Below, piece after piece: positions 30,953-44,984 of a stretch of 64,000 nt of DNA. The notes beneath the pieces were generated by a model that was not told where the DNA came from, did no database searches, and saw only the letters and a list, made by a program, of their open reading frames with translations. This DNA is from Escherichia phage rV5_ev147. Position numbers and translations under genes: made by a program. The DNA lies in sequence record LR597647. The stretch is one strand, 5' to 3'. The stretch's first letter is position 1. The number at the start of each line of letters is the position of its first letter.

Positions 30953-32423
30953 CACACAATTAGCTGCCCGGCTAAAGTGCTGGAAGCACCTATAACACAT
31001 CTTTCAACTAAATTTCCTACCACCACAATCACTTACCTCCCACACATGACTGTTTGCTTGTTTAGTGAGCAGTCATGCCTTGACATTCTTGCCTATCCTG
31101 ATAAAATTAAGTTCTTCTCTTTTCTTTTACCGAGTAATTCGGGTTTTCTGTTCTCTTCGGTTTGAAGGGGTATAGAGATACACCTGAGTGAACAGGGTGA
31201 ACAACCGAACCATTAGCTATGGCATTAGCATGGCGAAGCGGACGGGTGACGAAAGAGGGGCCGGAGGACACCAGTCACTGCCATATGATATATGGGTGAT
31301 AACCTGAAGAGTCTGAATAAGTGTTTAAGTACCAGTCAGAGGAAAAGGTGAATGGTAGCCGAAGGGGGGGAGGGGGGTTTCTTGTATCTTTAATTTGTAT
31401 ATTATGTATACACTTGTAAACCAATCTAATCTGAATCTGTTTACCACACAAAGCGGATAGAGACAAATATTGCCTATTAAACTTGAATTATTTATAGAAA
31501 ATACCACAACACCCCTTAAGTCTTTGATTTTACACACAAATCCTACAGATATTCAACCTCCATATTTAACATACTTGTAACATATTCCATACTCTACCTG
31601 TCTGATCAATTTCCCCAACTACATTCTCATATTTTCCCTGTCTGTACTACCCCTGCCCCGCCGGGAGTCCCGTCATATCTGGCTTTCCAGCAAATATCAC
31701 ACCCACAAATATCATTGCCTGAAGAGGGTTTCATCCCATAATACCTGCCTTACCTGAAGAGCGCTTCATACACCACGTAAATTTTTTAATTGACCTCCCC
31801 CTGCCCCGCCGGAGAGGTTGGCTTTTCCCACACAGACCTGAAGAGTCAGCCAGAAATATCTGAATAGGCCCAATTCTACCACGATTTTGACCTGACCTAC
31901 AGGGAGGCCCGAAGGGTCTAGCTTTCAGCTAGAGTCCTTGCAGGACCTACAGGAGCGCTGCCAGGCGGACGGAATGGGAATACTTCTCATTCTTATAACA
32001 ATTCTCAAATATCGAGGCAGTGAGAGAAATTAATAGGCCAGGCCGTTCACACAGTGGCACAACATTTGCAACCTATTTTGTGTGGATGAATGAGAATACC
32101 TATCATTGTGAGAACTGTTATCATTACGGGCAATTTAACATAATACCCATTATGCGCACCACTGGCGATACATACAAGGATTGATAACATGAGTTACAGT
32201 TTACGCATATAACAATCATATTTCTTACTATTTGTGTGGGATATAGTTAGCAGCCAATAGATTAGATATTGACCTGCGGACTTCCAACCGTCTAGACGTC
32301 TAAACGCCCACACAACAAGGATTATACATACATTACTGAATGTAAACAGGACCGCAAAAATGCTACCATACCAGTTTGTAAATTTTTCATGCAGCACTTG
32401 ACAAAGAGGAGGAAAACTTGTCT

Positions 32424-32475
32424 GACATAATGGTGACATAACTGACACGATTGACATAATTGACATGCCTGACTG
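32424..32475. repeat. iteron array: 5-6 direct copies of TGACA(T/C) at 9-11 bp spacing
   Basis: copies at 32424, 32435, 32444, 32452, 32461, 32470. Confidence 0.5.
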
Positions 32476-32520
32476 TTCACGCTCTCATTATTCCCGCCCT
32501 TACTATTCACGCCCTTTACT

Positions 32521-32610
32521 GCTTACATTCTTGATAGTCTACATGCTTAATGGTTTACATGACTAATAGTTTACATAGCTAACTGTTTACGCATAAACTG
32601 TTTACACAGA
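32521..32610. repeat. iteron array: about 6 copies of (G)TTTAC(A/G) at 15-16 bp spacing
   Basis: copies near 32523, 32540, 32555, 32570, 32586, 32601. Confidence 0.5.
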
Positions 32611-32618
32611 TATGATAA

Positions 32619-32910
32619 GCCATGCCATTCGTTTGCATGATAACAATAACGATCAACAACAATAAAGACTGAAATGATAACGTTGTTGATTTGACTGACT
32701 AACAATTAACAGGCTAATAATCTATGACATAATATAAAAGCAGGGCAACTATTAGCAGATCTATAGTTGCCTTGCTTGTTATGTCATGATTAACTAAATA
32801 CAAGGCAACTATGATCTGATTAATAGTTTGCAGACAAACTATCACGGGGGTGATGGTTACTGCTTTTATATTATGTCGCGACTCCGTCGCGCCATGCCAT
32901 TCGTTTGCAT
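32619..32910. repeat. 252-bp palindrome-rich segment flanked by perfect 20-bp direct repeats GCCATGCCATTCGTTTGCAT
   Basis: DR at 32619-32638 and 32891-32910; nested inverted repeats inside. Confidence 0.5.
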
Positions 32911-33571
32911 AGTTGCCTTATTGTTACAGATAAAATAATTGTATTGTTAATTATTTCTTATCTTTCTATTAGTCATCTAATGATTCCAGTTAGTATAGTA
33001 ACGTACAGTAAACATTAGACGACTAAAGATTTCTCTGATTATGATAACTTGCCGTGACAATTTCAGACTGTTTACGAAAAATGTTGACACCTGAGCTGAT
33101 TTATGTTATGCAATTTAAACGAATAATTATTTTATGCAGGTATTGACTATTCTGTTATTCTATGGTCGGAATAAATACTTAGCAGGCTATAGAATGGTGA
33201 GCGTACGTAAATTCTGAGATCTGTCGGCTATAGTTATACTCGATTTTTCACGTAGAACACGCTTTTTGGTTTGTGTAAGTGTATGACTTATAAAGATTTT
33301 TAGTTGTTGACAAGATATTGAAGATGTGCATCAGGTTAAATTTTGTGCAATAGCTGCATTACGTGCAATTTTGGAAGGAAAACGGGTAAAAATAGCACCG
33401 CTACCACACAATGAAAGGTTATGCAATAGTTATTTTACATGTATATTTGTACAGTGTGTGGGATTGATGGCTCGTCAATTATTCCACTTGCCAGGTAGGG
33501 CCGTTTATGGTAGGGAGGAAGAGCAGACAAAAAGAAAGGGACCTAAGCCCCTTGATAATTCAGTTAAAAAA

Positions 33572-34733: not shown

Positions 34734-34945
34734 GGCGTTTTCCTCTCTTCCGGTTGTTGTGTGGGCGCTTTTGCCCCCTTCGAGATAAATGCTACCCCAC
34801 CACCTGGCAGATGTCAACGGTTTTTATAGTTTTTATATAGCAGGCACACCCGGTGATTGTCTCCCCCCGTCGCCAGGTGCCTGCCGTGAAACAAGTATAA
34901 CAAAAAACAGGACCATTGCAAGCCCTGTTTTGTAGTTTATAAGGA

Positions 34946-40913: not shown

Positions 40914-41201
40914 TTATAACTTCCTGATCTGTGTGATCGTATCCCAAAAGTCTACGATTTTTGCGCCTCCAGCCTTTAGGCGGTATAGTGTTTCTTGCAT
41001 CTTGTAAGCCGGGATCGGTCGCGGTGTTACCTGGTCGCCCTTCTCATTCTTGTACTTGATAATATAGTCTTCATTGTCGTTGAATACCCAAAACGGGTAT
41101 TCTGTAAGGGCGTTGCTATCTTTTTCGTTTTTAGATTGGATCTTGTTTACAATTAAAGCCGTAGCAATAGCGCCAATAATAAAACTTGCCCCGCTGATCA
41201 T
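40914..41201 (-). CDS. small protein with N-terminal TM segment
   Basis: RBS aaaggagaaag before ATG at 41201. Confidence 0.45.
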   Translation of the reverse strand: MISGASFIIGAIATALIVNKIQSKNEKDSNALTEYPFWVFNDNEDYIIKYKNEKGDQVTPRPIPAYKMQETLYRLKAGGAKIVDFWDTITQIRKL

Positions 41202-43380: not shown

Positions 43381-43468
43381 GATTTTTATCCTCTCTGTTA
43401 ATTAGTGTGGTGTTGTTCACCTTGCGAGGATAAGAATAACAGAACTATCCGAGCTGTCAACCATTGGT

Positions 43469-43639
43469 TAGAATTTTTTTGGTAAGAATTCTCCAGCCGC
43501 CGCCCCTGCCAGGTTAACCATCATTTTTTCGTACTCTTCTTTATGTTCCAACGCTCCCGCCATAGCCTTTTCAACCAGGGCGATAGCCTCAGCGTCATTA
43601 ATAGCTACATTTTCCAGGGGGATCATATTACCTTTCATT
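43469..43639 (-). CDS. 56-aa hypothetical protein
   Basis: strong RBS gaggagg 7 nt before ATG. Confidence 0.4.
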
Positions 43640-44165
43640 TTTGTACCTCCTCTTCAATTGTTACCTATCCTATAGCATAGGCCCACCAGGTTTGCAAGCC
43701 TTCATTCTCTCCTACCTGGTCAGTTAGGTCCTGCCAGGCTGGCCCCGCCAGGTTGCAGCGGTCAGCGCATCAGGTTAGAAAAATTTTTTTGAAAAGTGTT
43801 GACAGCGGCCCCGCCAGGTGGCACAATATACCTATCGAAAGGACGGCAGGCACCGGTGACGGGGAGACAACCACCGGGGATGGGCGCTGCATAAAATGAG
43901 AACGGTTATCATTATCGTCTAAAAATTTATGCAAAAACTTCTTGCTTTCTTTGTCCTGTGTGTTACTATAATAACAAGCCGGGGCAGTAGGGGCCGGGAG
44001 ACAATCACCGGGGGTGCCCGTTATTCTGCAAACGAGAATGATTATCATTCAAAATTCTAAATGAGAACTTTTCTCATTTCATAAATTTAGTTAGCATGCT
44101 AATTACCTACCGTGACAATTCTATATAAAATAATACCTCCTAAAATATTTCCATATACAAATTTT

Positions 44166-44365
44166 AAAAATCCATTTCCGAAAACGAAAAATCGCTTTCG
44201 TTCCCAAAAATTTTAGACCTGGTGCTGGACCAATTTCAAGAAAATCCGATTCAGAAAACGAAAAACAGATCGAGTACTGAGAAGTTTATCGAGAAAAATT
44301 TTCAGAAAATTCAATCTTTGAAACGAAAAACAGATCGAGTACCTAGAAAGCTGCACCGCAATTTC
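44166..44365. repeat. three degenerate tandem repeats of about 65 bp (AAAAT-C-ATT...GAAAACGAAAAA...ATTTCAAG)
   Basis: units starting near 44166, 44232, 44296; GAAAACGAAAAACAGATCGAGTAC duplicated. Confidence 0.45.
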
Positions 44366-44654
44366 AAGATGGTGGTTAGATTATTACCATAAAAGGTCAA
44401 GGGTGAGTGGGAAAGTTCTGGTAGAGGGGTGTGAGCATACGCGGAAAATCTAGAATGGTAGTCCGGAATATGGTGCAAACGATAGGATGAGTGGTTCAGC
44501 TCGTCGTGCCTACTCTGAAAAAATCCATTTTAGTTTTCGATCCATTTTCTGATTTTCTAACAATTTTAAAATATCTGGCCGGGTGAAATATCAAAAGGAG
44601 GAAATCCATTTTAGAAATCCTCCTTATACTTGATATGTCAGAAATTTTCAAGTA

Positions 44655-44984
44655 TCAGCTATCTTTGTTTTTAGGTTTATACATGCGGAGAGGTATAGTC
44701 TTTGTAACATTCCATTTACTCAACCCTTCCCAGCTCCAGTTGTGGGCATGGTATCCGGTTATGCATGCACTGCTGGAGTGATCGTAAGCATAAGAGAACG
44801 CTAAGCGCACCAGGTGAGGCCAGTCTTTCCACGGTTGTGGTCCGTAAGCTTTTCTCCAACACCGACACAAACTAAATGTCTCAAGAATAGGCAGGATAAC
44901 AAATCCATACACCGCCACCAGAATAGCCAGCGCAATGATTGTCAGGAATACATACCCTGCAGTTGAAACGATGATCTCTGTCAT
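44655..44984 (-). CDS. membrane protein
   Basis: N-terminal TM VFLTIIALAILVAVYGFVILPIL. Confidence 0.45.
   Translation of the reverse strand: MTEIIVSTAGYVFLTIIALAILVAVYGFVILPILETFSLCRCWRKAYGPQPWKDWPHLVRLAFSYAYDHSSSACITGYHAHNWSWEGLSKWNVTKTIPLRMYKPKNKDS

Follow-up and report, generated by a model that had tools for sequence, protein, structure and literature searches.

A conserved gene-free island in the early gene cluster

The window analysed here was a 64,000-nt stretch of the genome of Escherichia phage rV5_ev147 (LR597647), an rV5-like coliphage (Vequintavirus). Within its minus-strand early/replication gene cluster lies a gene-free stretch of approximately 1 kb. This island is non-coding and strongly conserved; it carries functionally conserved promoters and Fur-type operators, and a terminator stands at its end. 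Nucleotide diversity from the first promoter (P1) to the third operator-like palindrome (F3) was the lowest of the locus (pi 0.03, nine Vequintavirus genomes being sampled for P1), compared with 0.09–0.11 in the flanking CDS and 0.165 at the third codon positions of those CDS. The second promoter (P2), its leader and the palindromic boxes were kept in Mydovirus, Certrevirus, Seunavirus, a Serratia phage and Phapecoctavirus. Conservation of this module thus spans the Vequintavirinae genera and Phapecoctavirus, i.e., two phage subfamilies, and no indel was found from the leader core to the box in any of them. Immediately upstream, other genera have a further element (element A), which is plausibly a structured RNA in its own right. 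The whole window contained no Rfam match at gathering thresholds, a permissive Rfam scan of the island yielded nothing credible, and six related loci were likewise without matches.

As had been proposed from the sequence alone, no convincing ORF is present. A 92-aa 'Phage protein' ORF (43770–44048, minus strand; VVA46337.1, rv5_gp193 in rV5) overlaps both twin modules described below and is annotated in several genomes, but it failed the coding tests. Its pi values by codon position (0.038/0.036/0.053) showed no third-position excess, in contrast to those of the neighbouring CDS (0.062/0.032/0.165), and its C-terminal third is in a different frame in the present isolate. Moreover, a 134-bp deletion shortens the ORF to 27 aa in AlexBoehm, and in Alma 14 aa remain; its ATG falls within a putative Fur box, and it lacks a Shine-Dalgarno sequence. 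ORF calls at this locus also differ between annotators from genome to genome. We conclude that the ORF is spurious and not a gene, and that it should be dropped from rV5-like genomes. A decayed tRNA gene was considered together with the 92-aa protein, given that a tRNA-Met feature covers the homologous spot in one Klebsiella phage record (OY978796.1). However, ARAGORN detected a tRNA neither in the window nor at the Klebsiella locus carrying the tRNA features, and the tRNA-Met, Ile and Lys features of that record were judged to be misplaced. It is therefore extremely improbable that the region encodes either product.

The end of the island is marked by tandem hairpins at 44595–44625 and 44626–44655 (−21.6 kcal/mol, z = −3.5 on the minus strand). 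These hairpins are real, but the accompanying suggestion that they sequester an RBS-like sequence did not hold, and the AAGGAGGA hairpin has no start codon after it. Instead, the hairpins start at the stop codon (44655–44657) that closes the upstream minus-strand gene and are followed on the minus strand by UUUUGAUAUUU, with a U-tract at 44585–44594, indicating that they are the intrinsic terminator of the upstream minus-strand operon and not an RBS trap. In relatives, a G·U pair is valid on the minus strand only, and two compensatory double changes were found in Mangalyan and slur16. The terminator may be bidirectional.

Twin promoter-leader modules on the plus strand

The left half of the island is occupied by two similar plus-strand elements, for which two shared motifs and preceding promoter-like sequences had been reported; both the exact motif matches and the promoter scan bore this out. 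The first motif, GGGAGACAAYCACCGGGGRTG, matched exactly at 43862–43882 and 43996–44016 (0 matches in shuffled sequences), and the second, GAGAAYGRTTATCATT, matched at 43898–43913 and 44034–44049. The repeat finder paired both twin halves at a spacing of 134–136 bp (families D3 and D4). The twins are a tandem duplication, each copy of which comprises an extended −10 sigma-70 promoter, a G+C-rich leader and 19-bp palindromes. A single copy of the module was present in one natural isolate (Bas56 AlexBoehm) and in all other genera.

P1 (43799–43827, plus strand; TTGACA-17-CACAAT with an upstream TG) scored 10/12 in the promoter scan, was invariant in the nine Vequintavirus genomes and is oriented against the flanking minus-strand genes. 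P2 (43942–43969, plus strand) was read from the sequence as TTGCTT-16-TACTAT with a TG extension, a register common to the other genera, and it aligned with functional-looking promoters of seven other genera or lineages. The perfect TATAAT pointed out by the sequence-only reading does exist and overlaps P2, but at 43967–43972, one base off the reported 43968–43973, and it is 19 nt from the −35 hexamer TTGCTT. The plus-strand host-type promoters are thus real, and their function has been kept over two phage subfamilies though the hexamers vary.

Each promoter is followed by a G+C-rich leader of 45–50 nt with the invariant core GGGAGACAAYCACCGGG. Leader 1 (43845–43890, plus strand) forms a stem-loop with the core GGGAGACAACCACCGGGG at 43862–43882 (−19.3 kcal/mol, z = −1.8), and leader 2 (43979–44022, plus strand) forms one with the core GGGAGACAATCACCGGGG at 43996–44016 (−16.5 kcal/mol, z = −0.2). 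A third promoter-plus-leader copy was found on the minus strand at 34841–34921 (TTGCAA-16-TATACT with TG, then GGCAGGCACC..GGGAGACAATCACCGGGTGTGCCTGC; −24.2 kcal/mol, z = −2.2), where GGGAGACAAYCACCGGGGRTG recurs at 34845–34865 with one mismatch. This copy is without a Fur box and is located upstream of a protein-coding early gene. The leader had no match in E. coli that could represent a host counterpart.

The twins had been suggested to be paralogous small RNAs, in which case the loop GAGACAAaCACC might act in trans, e.g., by seed pairing with host mRNAs. The strong conserved promoters, the invariant 12-nt core between G+C-rich complementary arms and the very low diversity within the twins would all fit two small regulatory RNA genes. 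In addition, the sense strand folded better than the antisense strand in 15 of 21 sequences, which is weakly informative, and element A in the other genera indicates that the locus is able to encode RNAs. However, neither twin has its own terminator, the sole strong one (44595–44655) being approximately 600 nt downstream, and AlexBoehm does without one copy. Leader folding was no better than that of shuffled sequences, as the two z-scores above illustrate, and RNAalifold on a MAFFT alignment returned 0 consensus pairs. When 5' and 3' stem halves were swapped between relatives, the cognate pairs had no advantage (−16.4 kcal/mol, vs −15.6 kcal/mol for non-cognate pairs); swapped halves cost no folding energy, indicating that there is no covariation in the leader. 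Together with the lack of an Rfam match, the structured-RNA evidence for the twins is weak, and we regard two small-RNA genes as unlikely.

Two further RNA candidates were rejected. The first was a Fur-repressed minus-strand sRNA, with the boxes serving as −35 and −10 elements and the hairpin as a terminator whose U-tail would be the P2 −10 region. It was discarded because the two promoter elements would stand 15 nt apart, because the second box is absent in PVP-SE1, and because the plus-strand hexamers vary yet remain promoter-like, a constraint that a terminator tail does not need. The second was a ToxI or phiTE pseudo-ToxI element: no match was found in the phiTE island at up to three mismatches with a manually entered ToxI repeat query, and the repeat period of the island is 65–74 nt, vs 36 nt for the tandem repeats of ToxI.

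Putative Fur operators downstream of the promoters

The 19-bp palindromes behind the leaders are probably near-consensus Fur operators of the AATGA(T/G)AATnATT(A/C)TCATT type, and the second motif shared by the twins would then be a DNA operator (a putative Fur box) and not an RNA motif. Boxes were scored as identities out of 18 to the consensus AATGATAATnATTATCATT. F1 (AATGAGAACGGTTATCATT, 43895–43913) scored 15/18 and lies at about +62 from the inferred P1 start (near 43834). F2 (AACGAGAATGATTATCATT, 44031–44049), at about +56 from the inferred P2 start (near 43976), scored 16/18, which is the best in the genome, and no other part of the island is as well conserved between subfamilies; the F2 counterpart in the other genera, GCAAATGAGAATGATTATCATT, matches the ryhB operator of E. 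coli at 20/22 positions. F3 (AATGAGAACTTTTCTCATT, 44060–44078) scored 14/18 and is a perfect 9-bp palindrome located 29 bp from F2, at about +85 from the P2 start; additional boxes follow at the F3 position in the other genera. Four more Fur-like boxes are clustered at 31973–32125, in the other gene-free island (31500–33570), and the one at 32089 scored 15/18. Only three sites of at least 15/18 occur in the 136-kb genome, all of them within its two gene-free islands, compared with 0.1 in shuffled sequences. Similarly, seven of the nine PVP-SE1 sites of at least 14/18 are inside the two islands of that phage.

The assignment to Fur draws on the bacterial contexts of the same sequences. The exact 18-mer was found in more than 120 bacterial genomes of several phyla and was nearly always intergenic. 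Among 20 flanking proteins, taken in listed order with no selection by function, approximately 11–12 were involved in iron or metal uptake or storage, including TonB receptors, siderophore or iron binding proteins, ferritin, PepSY_TM proteins, Lys/Orn oxygenases and ZnuA. A 21/23 match to the box was present in 5415 of 5426 E. coli genomes, and in the one representative genome examined this match was the ryhB Fur operator, which has been ranked among the strongest Fur sites (PMC2189734). Moreover, the G-variant of the box is identical to the Xanthomonas Fur consensus (PMC1790865). No phage-encoded Fur homologue was detected by tblastn with a manually entered E. coli Fur query.

The predicted boxes span about +56 to +103 from the inferred starts and overlap neither the −35 and −10 hexamers nor the start site; by reading, no conserved promoter overlapping the boxes was found on either strand. 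Fur clusters located downstream of a promoter have been reported to repress only weakly (PMC2189734), which counts against Fur gating here. A comparable arrangement recurs in unrelated viral contigs, in which the box often closely follows a consensus promoter (9% of box contexts vs 1% of control windows). A full-text literature search, in which not all journals were covered, returned no paper describing Fur boxes in virulent phages.

Alternatively, the boxes could be mainly a Fur sponge, the promoters and repeats being unrelated to them. Replicating genomes, each with approximately seven predicted high-affinity boxes, would bind up Fur and thereby release the iron uptake of the host from repression, and the iron would feed the iron-dependent ribonucleotide reductases of the phage. 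Multicopy plasmids with a single Fur box derepress the regulon, which is the basis of the FURTA assay and counts for such a sponge. In rV5 as well as in PVP-SE1, the boxes are concentrated in the two gene-free islands, which also agrees with a sponge, as does the presence of similar box arrays in non-coding regions of unrelated virulent phages such as the T5-like DT571/2. However, the spacing between leader and box is invariant in two subfamilies, which points to a link with the promoter module and not to free-standing decoys, and a role confined mainly to titration appears improbable to us.

Origin-like repeats and a possible iron-gated transcription unit

Downstream of the boxes, an A+T-rich spacer (44083–44157) contains the palindrome TTAGCATGCTAA at 44091–44102; 100-nt windows with 25–26% G+C together span 44050–44199. 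It is followed on the plus strand by three direct units (44158–44361; repeat family D1) starting at 44158, 44232 and 44297, each with an A/T tract, AAATCCATTT, GAAAACGAAAAA and then the core GATCGAGTAC (44268–44277 and 44333–44342), which can be summarised as G(A/G)TCGAG. Three tandem repeats of 65 bp had been described; the number of units stood, but their spacing is 74 and 65 bp rather than uniform. The units are degenerate (62% and 79% identity to the reference unit) and were missed by Tandem Repeats Finder, which reported nothing. Units 1 and 2 are highly conserved (pi 0.03–0.06). GAP31 and Kashira have three comparable units with a GATCGAG core, and GATCGAG cores are also repeated in the Klebsiella Mydovirus and phiTE. 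Beyond the repeats, a hypervariable segment (44362–44510; pi 0.27) has a strong plus-strand excess of G over C, with a GC skew of up to +0.59, and a G-skewed patch was found at the same relative position in seven of eight genera. The conserved right-hand block (44511–44594) contains AAATCCATTTT repeats, an inverted TTTTCG and two AAATATC motifs (44569 and 44586), and AAATATC repeats occur at the corresponding island end in other genera.

Direct repeats, an A+T-rich region and inward-pointing promoters (P1 and P2) are all present, and the earlier suggestion of an origin is therefore compatible with the anatomy of the island, but no origin-specific signal was found. GC skew followed gene orientation without an origin-type switch in our own computation, with which the rV5 paper agrees; inside the island, the plus-strand skew changes to the sign of the sense strand. 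Conserved DnaA boxes are absent, and the rV5 island shows no GATC excess (3 per kb vs 5.5 per kb across the window). The 2-kb island at 31500–33570 looks at least as origin-like.

The repeats might instead be a pac site or another DNA-transaction site, with the small terminase binding the G(A/G)TCGAG units. The pac site of phage P1 contains GATC hexamers, and the repeat core, which includes a GATC, is found three to five times in other genera. Furthermore, rV5-like phages package by the headful mechanism and have circularly permuted genomes, and phiTE carries out generalised transduction (PMC3475682). Against this possibility, the island is approximately 57 kb from the terminase gene, and its GATC density is below that of the window, as given above. 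Record starts were also considered: three of them start no more than 1.6 kb away from the island and carry no terminus annotation, but such starts are uninformative because records are circularised at arbitrary points. A packaging function is thus very unlikely.

Host-type promoters that run into predicted Fur sites and then into origin-like repeats suggest a part of the phage programme that is tied to host iron. Our preferred reading, to which we assign a probability of roughly 45%, is that the island may be a conserved non-coding plus-strand transcription unit or cis-acting control region that is gated by Fur and is possibly a transcription-activated replication origin. The modules would fire rightwards across the A+T-rich stretch, the three iteron-like units and the G-rich patch, and plus-strand transcription would halt at the terminator shared with the upstream minus-strand operon. 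Host Fur loaded with Fe2+ would bind the boxes and act as a roadblock to this transcription, such that transcription into the repeat region would depend on the iron status of the host. The boxes may in addition sequester Fur as copies of the phage genome accumulate. The transcription would most likely serve to activate or prime a replication origin.

More broadly, and more tentatively, several unrelated virulent lineages may keep clusters of high-affinity operators for host Fur in conserved gene-free islands, by which they would gate development or titrate Fur. The lineages in question comprise phages related to rV5, phAPEC8 and T5, together with some jumbo phages and numerous uncultured viral contigs. 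For the rV5 group, the putative operators would have a fixed place, 56 nt behind a strong early module of promoter and leader that reads into the origin-like repeats. Should Fur bind there, gating could apply to the firing of an origin or to the production of a long non-coding RNA; alternatively, titration of Fur could open the iron-uptake regulon of the host. Fur operators are textbook elements of bacterial iron regulation, and to our knowledge those on phages are known only before cargo genes of temperate phages (stx1 and sit). Iron is scarce in the gut and during infection. If the reading is true, iron availability would feed directly into the lytic programme of virulent, therapy-relevant coliphages, which would provide a handle on two blanks in rV5-like phages, namely the role of the "non-coding" islands and the site at which replication starts.

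Several known systems resemble parts of this arrangement. The boxB hairpin of lambda nut and the HK022 put sites are promoter-proximal, cis-acting RNA hairpins. The phage leader might be analogous, as it is a stem-loop with an invariant loop and variable stems directly behind early promoters, with three copies per genome; unlike nut boxB and put, it has neither sequence similarity to them nor covariation support. The primary origin of T7 consists of the tandem promoters 1.1A and 1.1B and an A+T-rich region, T4 oriF and oriG are R-loop origins, and ColE1 uses RNA II. The island shares with these origins an early/replication setting and tandem promoters directed at an A+T-rich region, behind which direct repeats and a patch rich in G on the non-template strand follow; it differs in lacking a skew switch, and the likeness is anatomical only.

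The 'injection stop signal' region of T5 is also a conserved, untranslated, repeat- and palindrome-rich island of a virulent enterobacterial phage, and in DT571/2 arrays of AAATGAGAATCATT boxes occur in the T5-type non-coding repeat region. Unlike the rV5 island, this region belongs to another phage family and has another position, in the terminal repeat. The T5 terminal-repeat region has been interpreted in terms of DnaA boxes and DNA injection, and Fur was absent from the searched text (bioRxiv 10.1101/866236).

With the ryhB operator and other Fur boxes, the phage boxes share the 19-bp palindrome, the 20/22 identity of GCAAATGAGAATGATTATCATT, and clustering as in natural Fur-regulated promoters. 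Unlike at ryhB, the predicted phage boxes are downstream of the promoter, in a virulent phage and before no gene. The stx1 promoter is an example of a Fur box on a phage. The sit operon of lambdoid prophages likewise has a Fur box (PMC6969025). In both cases host Fur is wired to a phage-borne promoter, as is predicted here; however, stx1 and sit are cargo genes of temperate phages, whereas the candidate operators described here are located in non-coding islands of virulent phages, together with a promoter-leader module and repeats.

A non-coding island within a minus-strand gene cluster

The annotated neighbours of the ORF-poor island at 43640-44654 are all on the minus strand and form the transcription unit numbered 10-1-238-164 in the rV5 paper (PMC3606486). 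That paper marks a single "non-coding" box in the genome and states that no origin emerged from its skew analysis; its text, as searched, is silent on this island. Over 1.5 kb around the island, identity to Escherichia phage rV5_ev156 (LR694165.1, Vequintavirus) is 100%, and 120 further phage records match at 80-95% identity. The window and LR694165.1 differ by one base, outside this region; at 40944 the window has one T fewer (GTATCCCAAAAG vs GTATCTCCAAAAG) within an annotated minus-strand CDS, and a frameshift is expected. Sixteen GenBank records named 'Campylobacter phage', ~93% identical to window 43400-44900, are probably mislabelled or contaminants. Record CP057073.1 (137.5 kb), filed as an E. 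coli 'plasmid', is the genome of an rV5-like phage, and tRNA features in OY978796.1 are misplaced. Short similar stretches ~307 bp apart (43466-43520 and 43773-43830; GGTTAGAAnnATTTTTTTG and GCCCCnGCCAGGT) suggest that the left edge may derive from partial duplication of the end of a 56-aa gene.

Database annotation places a 92-aa ORF at 43770-44048 (minus strand), across both twins, the two promoter, leader and box modules of the island. In an alignment of nine Vequintavirus genomes, its diversity was equal across codon positions (pi 0.038/0.036/0.053), compared with 0.062/0.032/0.165 for the gene adjoining the island. A 1-nt indel at ~43861 puts its last third in a different frame in this isolate from that of all others aligned. 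The ORF is cut to 14 aa in Alma, and recombination between the twins removed 134 bp in AlexBoehm, leaving one hybrid module and a 27-aa stub. Additionally, its ATG falls inside a palindromic box and is preceded by no Shine-Dalgarno sequence. The island is non-coding: the sequence-only reading had found no convincing ORF, and the annotated one fails the nine-genome coding test.

From the first promoter to the third box, pi is ~0.03 within Vequintavirus, against 0.09-0.11 in flanking genes. A sensitive search found ~90-150 bp around the second twin conserved beyond this genus, in Klebsiella Mydovirus, Pectobacterium Certrevirus, Seunavirus (GAP31 and PVP-SE1), a Serratia phage and Phapecoctavirus (Stephanstirmvirinae). 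In each of them it occupies a gene-poor gap within the minus-strand cluster and is oriented against the cluster genes.

Promoters, leader and predicted Fur operators

Both motifs reported as shared by the twins were located at their positions, the first having 0 matches in shuffled sequence, and both promoters before them are real. P1 (43799-43827, plus strand) reads TTGACA-17-CACAAT with TG and scores 10/12. The perfect TATAAT singled out for the second (43967-43972, plus strand) sits 19 nt from the -35, whereas the register common to relatives is TTGCTT-16-TACTAT with a TG extension (P2, plus strand). Across lineages, the -35 is TTGATC, TTGCAA, TTGACC, TTGCTT or TTGACA, and the -10, usually with TG, is TATTAT, TATATT, GATACT, TATTCT or TACTAT. 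Because the hexamers upstream of the second-twin element vary by lineage yet stay promoter-like at a fixed distance, the prediction that host RNA polymerase makes plus-strand transcripts has good support. The first motif recurs a third time (34845-34865, minus strand), in a promoter-plus-leader module without a Fur box (34841-34921, minus strand), which is directly followed by a second promoter and a protein-coding gene. Its extended -10 promoter (TTGCAA-16-TATACT) overlaps a terminator, the -35 lying inside the stem of this preceding terminator. Since this copy also follows an extended -10 promoter, the recurring unit is "promoter plus leader". Several early promoters (43799-43827, 34789-34817 and 43667-43697) share CCWGG (Dcm site) between -35 and -10, reading CCAGGTGG or CCTGGTGG.

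In the leader, G+C-rich arms able to pair flank a core that is invariant, GAGACAA(A/T/C)CACC. RNAalifold found no consensus structure, and the 5' arm folded with the 3' arms of other lineages as well as with its cognate. Folding z-scores of the three copies were -1.8, -0.2 and -2.2, the sense strand being slightly favoured over antisense, and neither an Rfam match nor an E. coli counterpart was found. The case for a selected RNA structure is weak; the leader could act in 5'-end stabilisation, in protein binding or as a DNA site. The twins, each behind a promoter, had been proposed as paralogous small RNAs; structure and covariance did not bear this out, and small RNA genes are unlikely.

The second shared motif is a predicted Fur operator. 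The three boxes (F2 at 44031, F1 at 43895 and F3 at 44060) are 19-bp palindromes, AACGAGAATGATTATCATT, AATGAGAACGGTTATCATT and AATGAGAACTTTTCTCATT, which match AATGATAATnATTATCATT at 16/18, 15/18 and 14/18 positions, respectively. At 15/18 or better, the 136-kb genome has just three sites (shuffles, 0.1), none of them outside the two gene-free islands; box-like patterns are concentrated at 31975-32125 and 43897-44076. In PVP-SE1, seven of nine sites at 14/18 or better are in its two islands, one at 17/18. Identical copies of the 18-mer in the conserved box are present in over 120 bacterial genomes, ranging from Bacillota to Cyanobacteria and Proteobacteria; nearly all are intergenic and at most 100 bp from a gene start. 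Twenty flanking proteins, taken in listed order without choice by function, included three TonB-dependent receptors, a siderophore-type periplasmic binding protein, a ferric-type solute-binding protein, a ferritin, a PepSY_TM protein, two lysine/ornithine N-monooxygenases and a ZnuA-type transporter pair. A 21/23 match is present in 5415 of 5426 E. coli genomes and, in the one K-12 representative examined, is the operator directly upstream of ryhB, which is among the strongest Fur sites (Chen et al., PMC2189734). The Fur consensus published for Xanthomonas is identical to the G-variant, AATGAgAATcATTctCATT (PMC1790865). A tblastn search with an E. coli Fur query found no Fur homologue in the phage. 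Judged by sequence, the boxes are probable high-affinity sites for host Fur.

Counted from the inferred start sites, the boxes are at ~+56 to +103 and leave the promoter uncovered; the leader-to-box spacing is invariant across subfamilies. This invariance suggests that the boxes are coupled, in a roadblock-type arrangement, and are not free decoys, and a Fur sponge seems even less probable than small RNA genes. We favour a Fur-gated non-coding transcription unit or cis-element, with a probability of about 0.45.

The box and module in other phages

The identical box was found, often clustered, in more than 120 IMG/VR contigs of 21-58% G+C. It is seven-fold enriched directly 3' of consensus promoters (9% of box contexts vs 1% of control windows) and starts 11-13 nt past the -10 in six of ten strong promoter-linked cases. 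In Escherichia phage DT571/2 (T5-like; L089, 7000-8100), AAATGAGAATCATT half-boxes, together with full boxes, form arrays of ~23-bp period in the non-coding repeat region within the terminal repeat and are predicted to be of the same Fur type in an unrelated virulent phage. A detailed analysis of the T5 non-coding repeat region through DnaA boxes (bioRxiv 10.1101/866236) does not mention Fur in the text as searched. A full-text literature search, covering part of the journals, turned up no paper that describes Fur boxes in virulent phages, and the sole phage cases it returned concern the sit operon of lambdoid prophages.

Directly upstream of the module, the other genera have a further, distinct conserved element, which has a sigma-70 promoter of its own and is absent from rV5 (loci L005 1308-1425, L003 1306-1423 and L006 1367-1480, and eight further loci). 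It is ~70 nt long and nearly invariant (CGCCACCCCACGGCGAAAAGGCGGGGCUAAC...GGAAGGUGGAUCGCCGG), with 16 pairs in RNAalifold, two of them covarying, and no Rfam match, and is a candidate undescribed phage RNA.

Downstream repeats, terminator and the origin question

The boxes are followed by an A+T-rich stretch (25-26% G+C in composition windows spanning 44050-44199), three direct units, a hypervariable patch, a conserved block and a terminator. The three tandem 65-bp repeats described earlier exist as units starting at 44158, 44232 and 44297, the identity to the reference unit being 62% and 79%; they escaped Tandem Repeats Finder. They contain A/T tracts and a core, GATCGAGTAC, which in the first unit is GGTCGAGAGCC in other Vequintaviruses, and pi for units 1-2 is 0.03-0.06 within the genus. 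The repeats are conserved in related phages: in GAP31 and Kashira, three comparable units of 70-75 bp carry GATCGAG(A/T)AC, and GATCGAG cores are repeated in the Klebsiella Mydovirus and phiTE. That they form a pac site is very improbable. The patch at 44362-44510 (pi 0.27, above the 0.165 of third codon positions in the neighbouring gene) keeps a strong plus-strand G excess in seven of eight lineages, and the conserved block comprises AAATCCATTTT and AAATATC motifs. The plus-strand skew switches to the "sense" sign inside the island, which fits rightward transcription.

Tandem hairpins at 44595-44655 (minus strand; -21.6 kcal/mol, z = -3.5) begin where the upstream gene has its stop codon and are followed by UUUUGAUAUUU. 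In most relatives, AAGGGGGA pairs with UCCUCCUU, including a G·U pair possible on the minus strand only, and Mangalyan and slur16 have two compensatory double changes. No start codon follows AAGGAGGA. Rather than sequestering an RBS, as first proposed, the hairpins serve the upstream operon as its terminator, which may work bidirectionally.

The other gene-free island (31500-33570) is an origin candidate at least as good as this one. It is 2 kb long, ORF-free and located at the plus- to minus-strand gene switch. It contains four Fur-like boxes (31973-32125), AAATATC motifs in pairs and, at 32400-32620, densely packed short TGTTTAC and TGACAT repeats. Its PVP-SE1 counterpart (116551-118820) has six Fur matches of at least 14/18 and opens with a promoter-leader-box module.

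No origin-specific skew switch, conserved DnaA boxes or GATC excess was found at 43640-44654, and origin function would take up roughly three tenths of the probability given to the Fur-gated unit. The tandem promoters would read into the A+T-rich region, the direct repeats and the G-rich non-template patch, an arrangement resembling the transcription-activated origins of T7 (primary origin), T4 (oriF/G) and ColE1.
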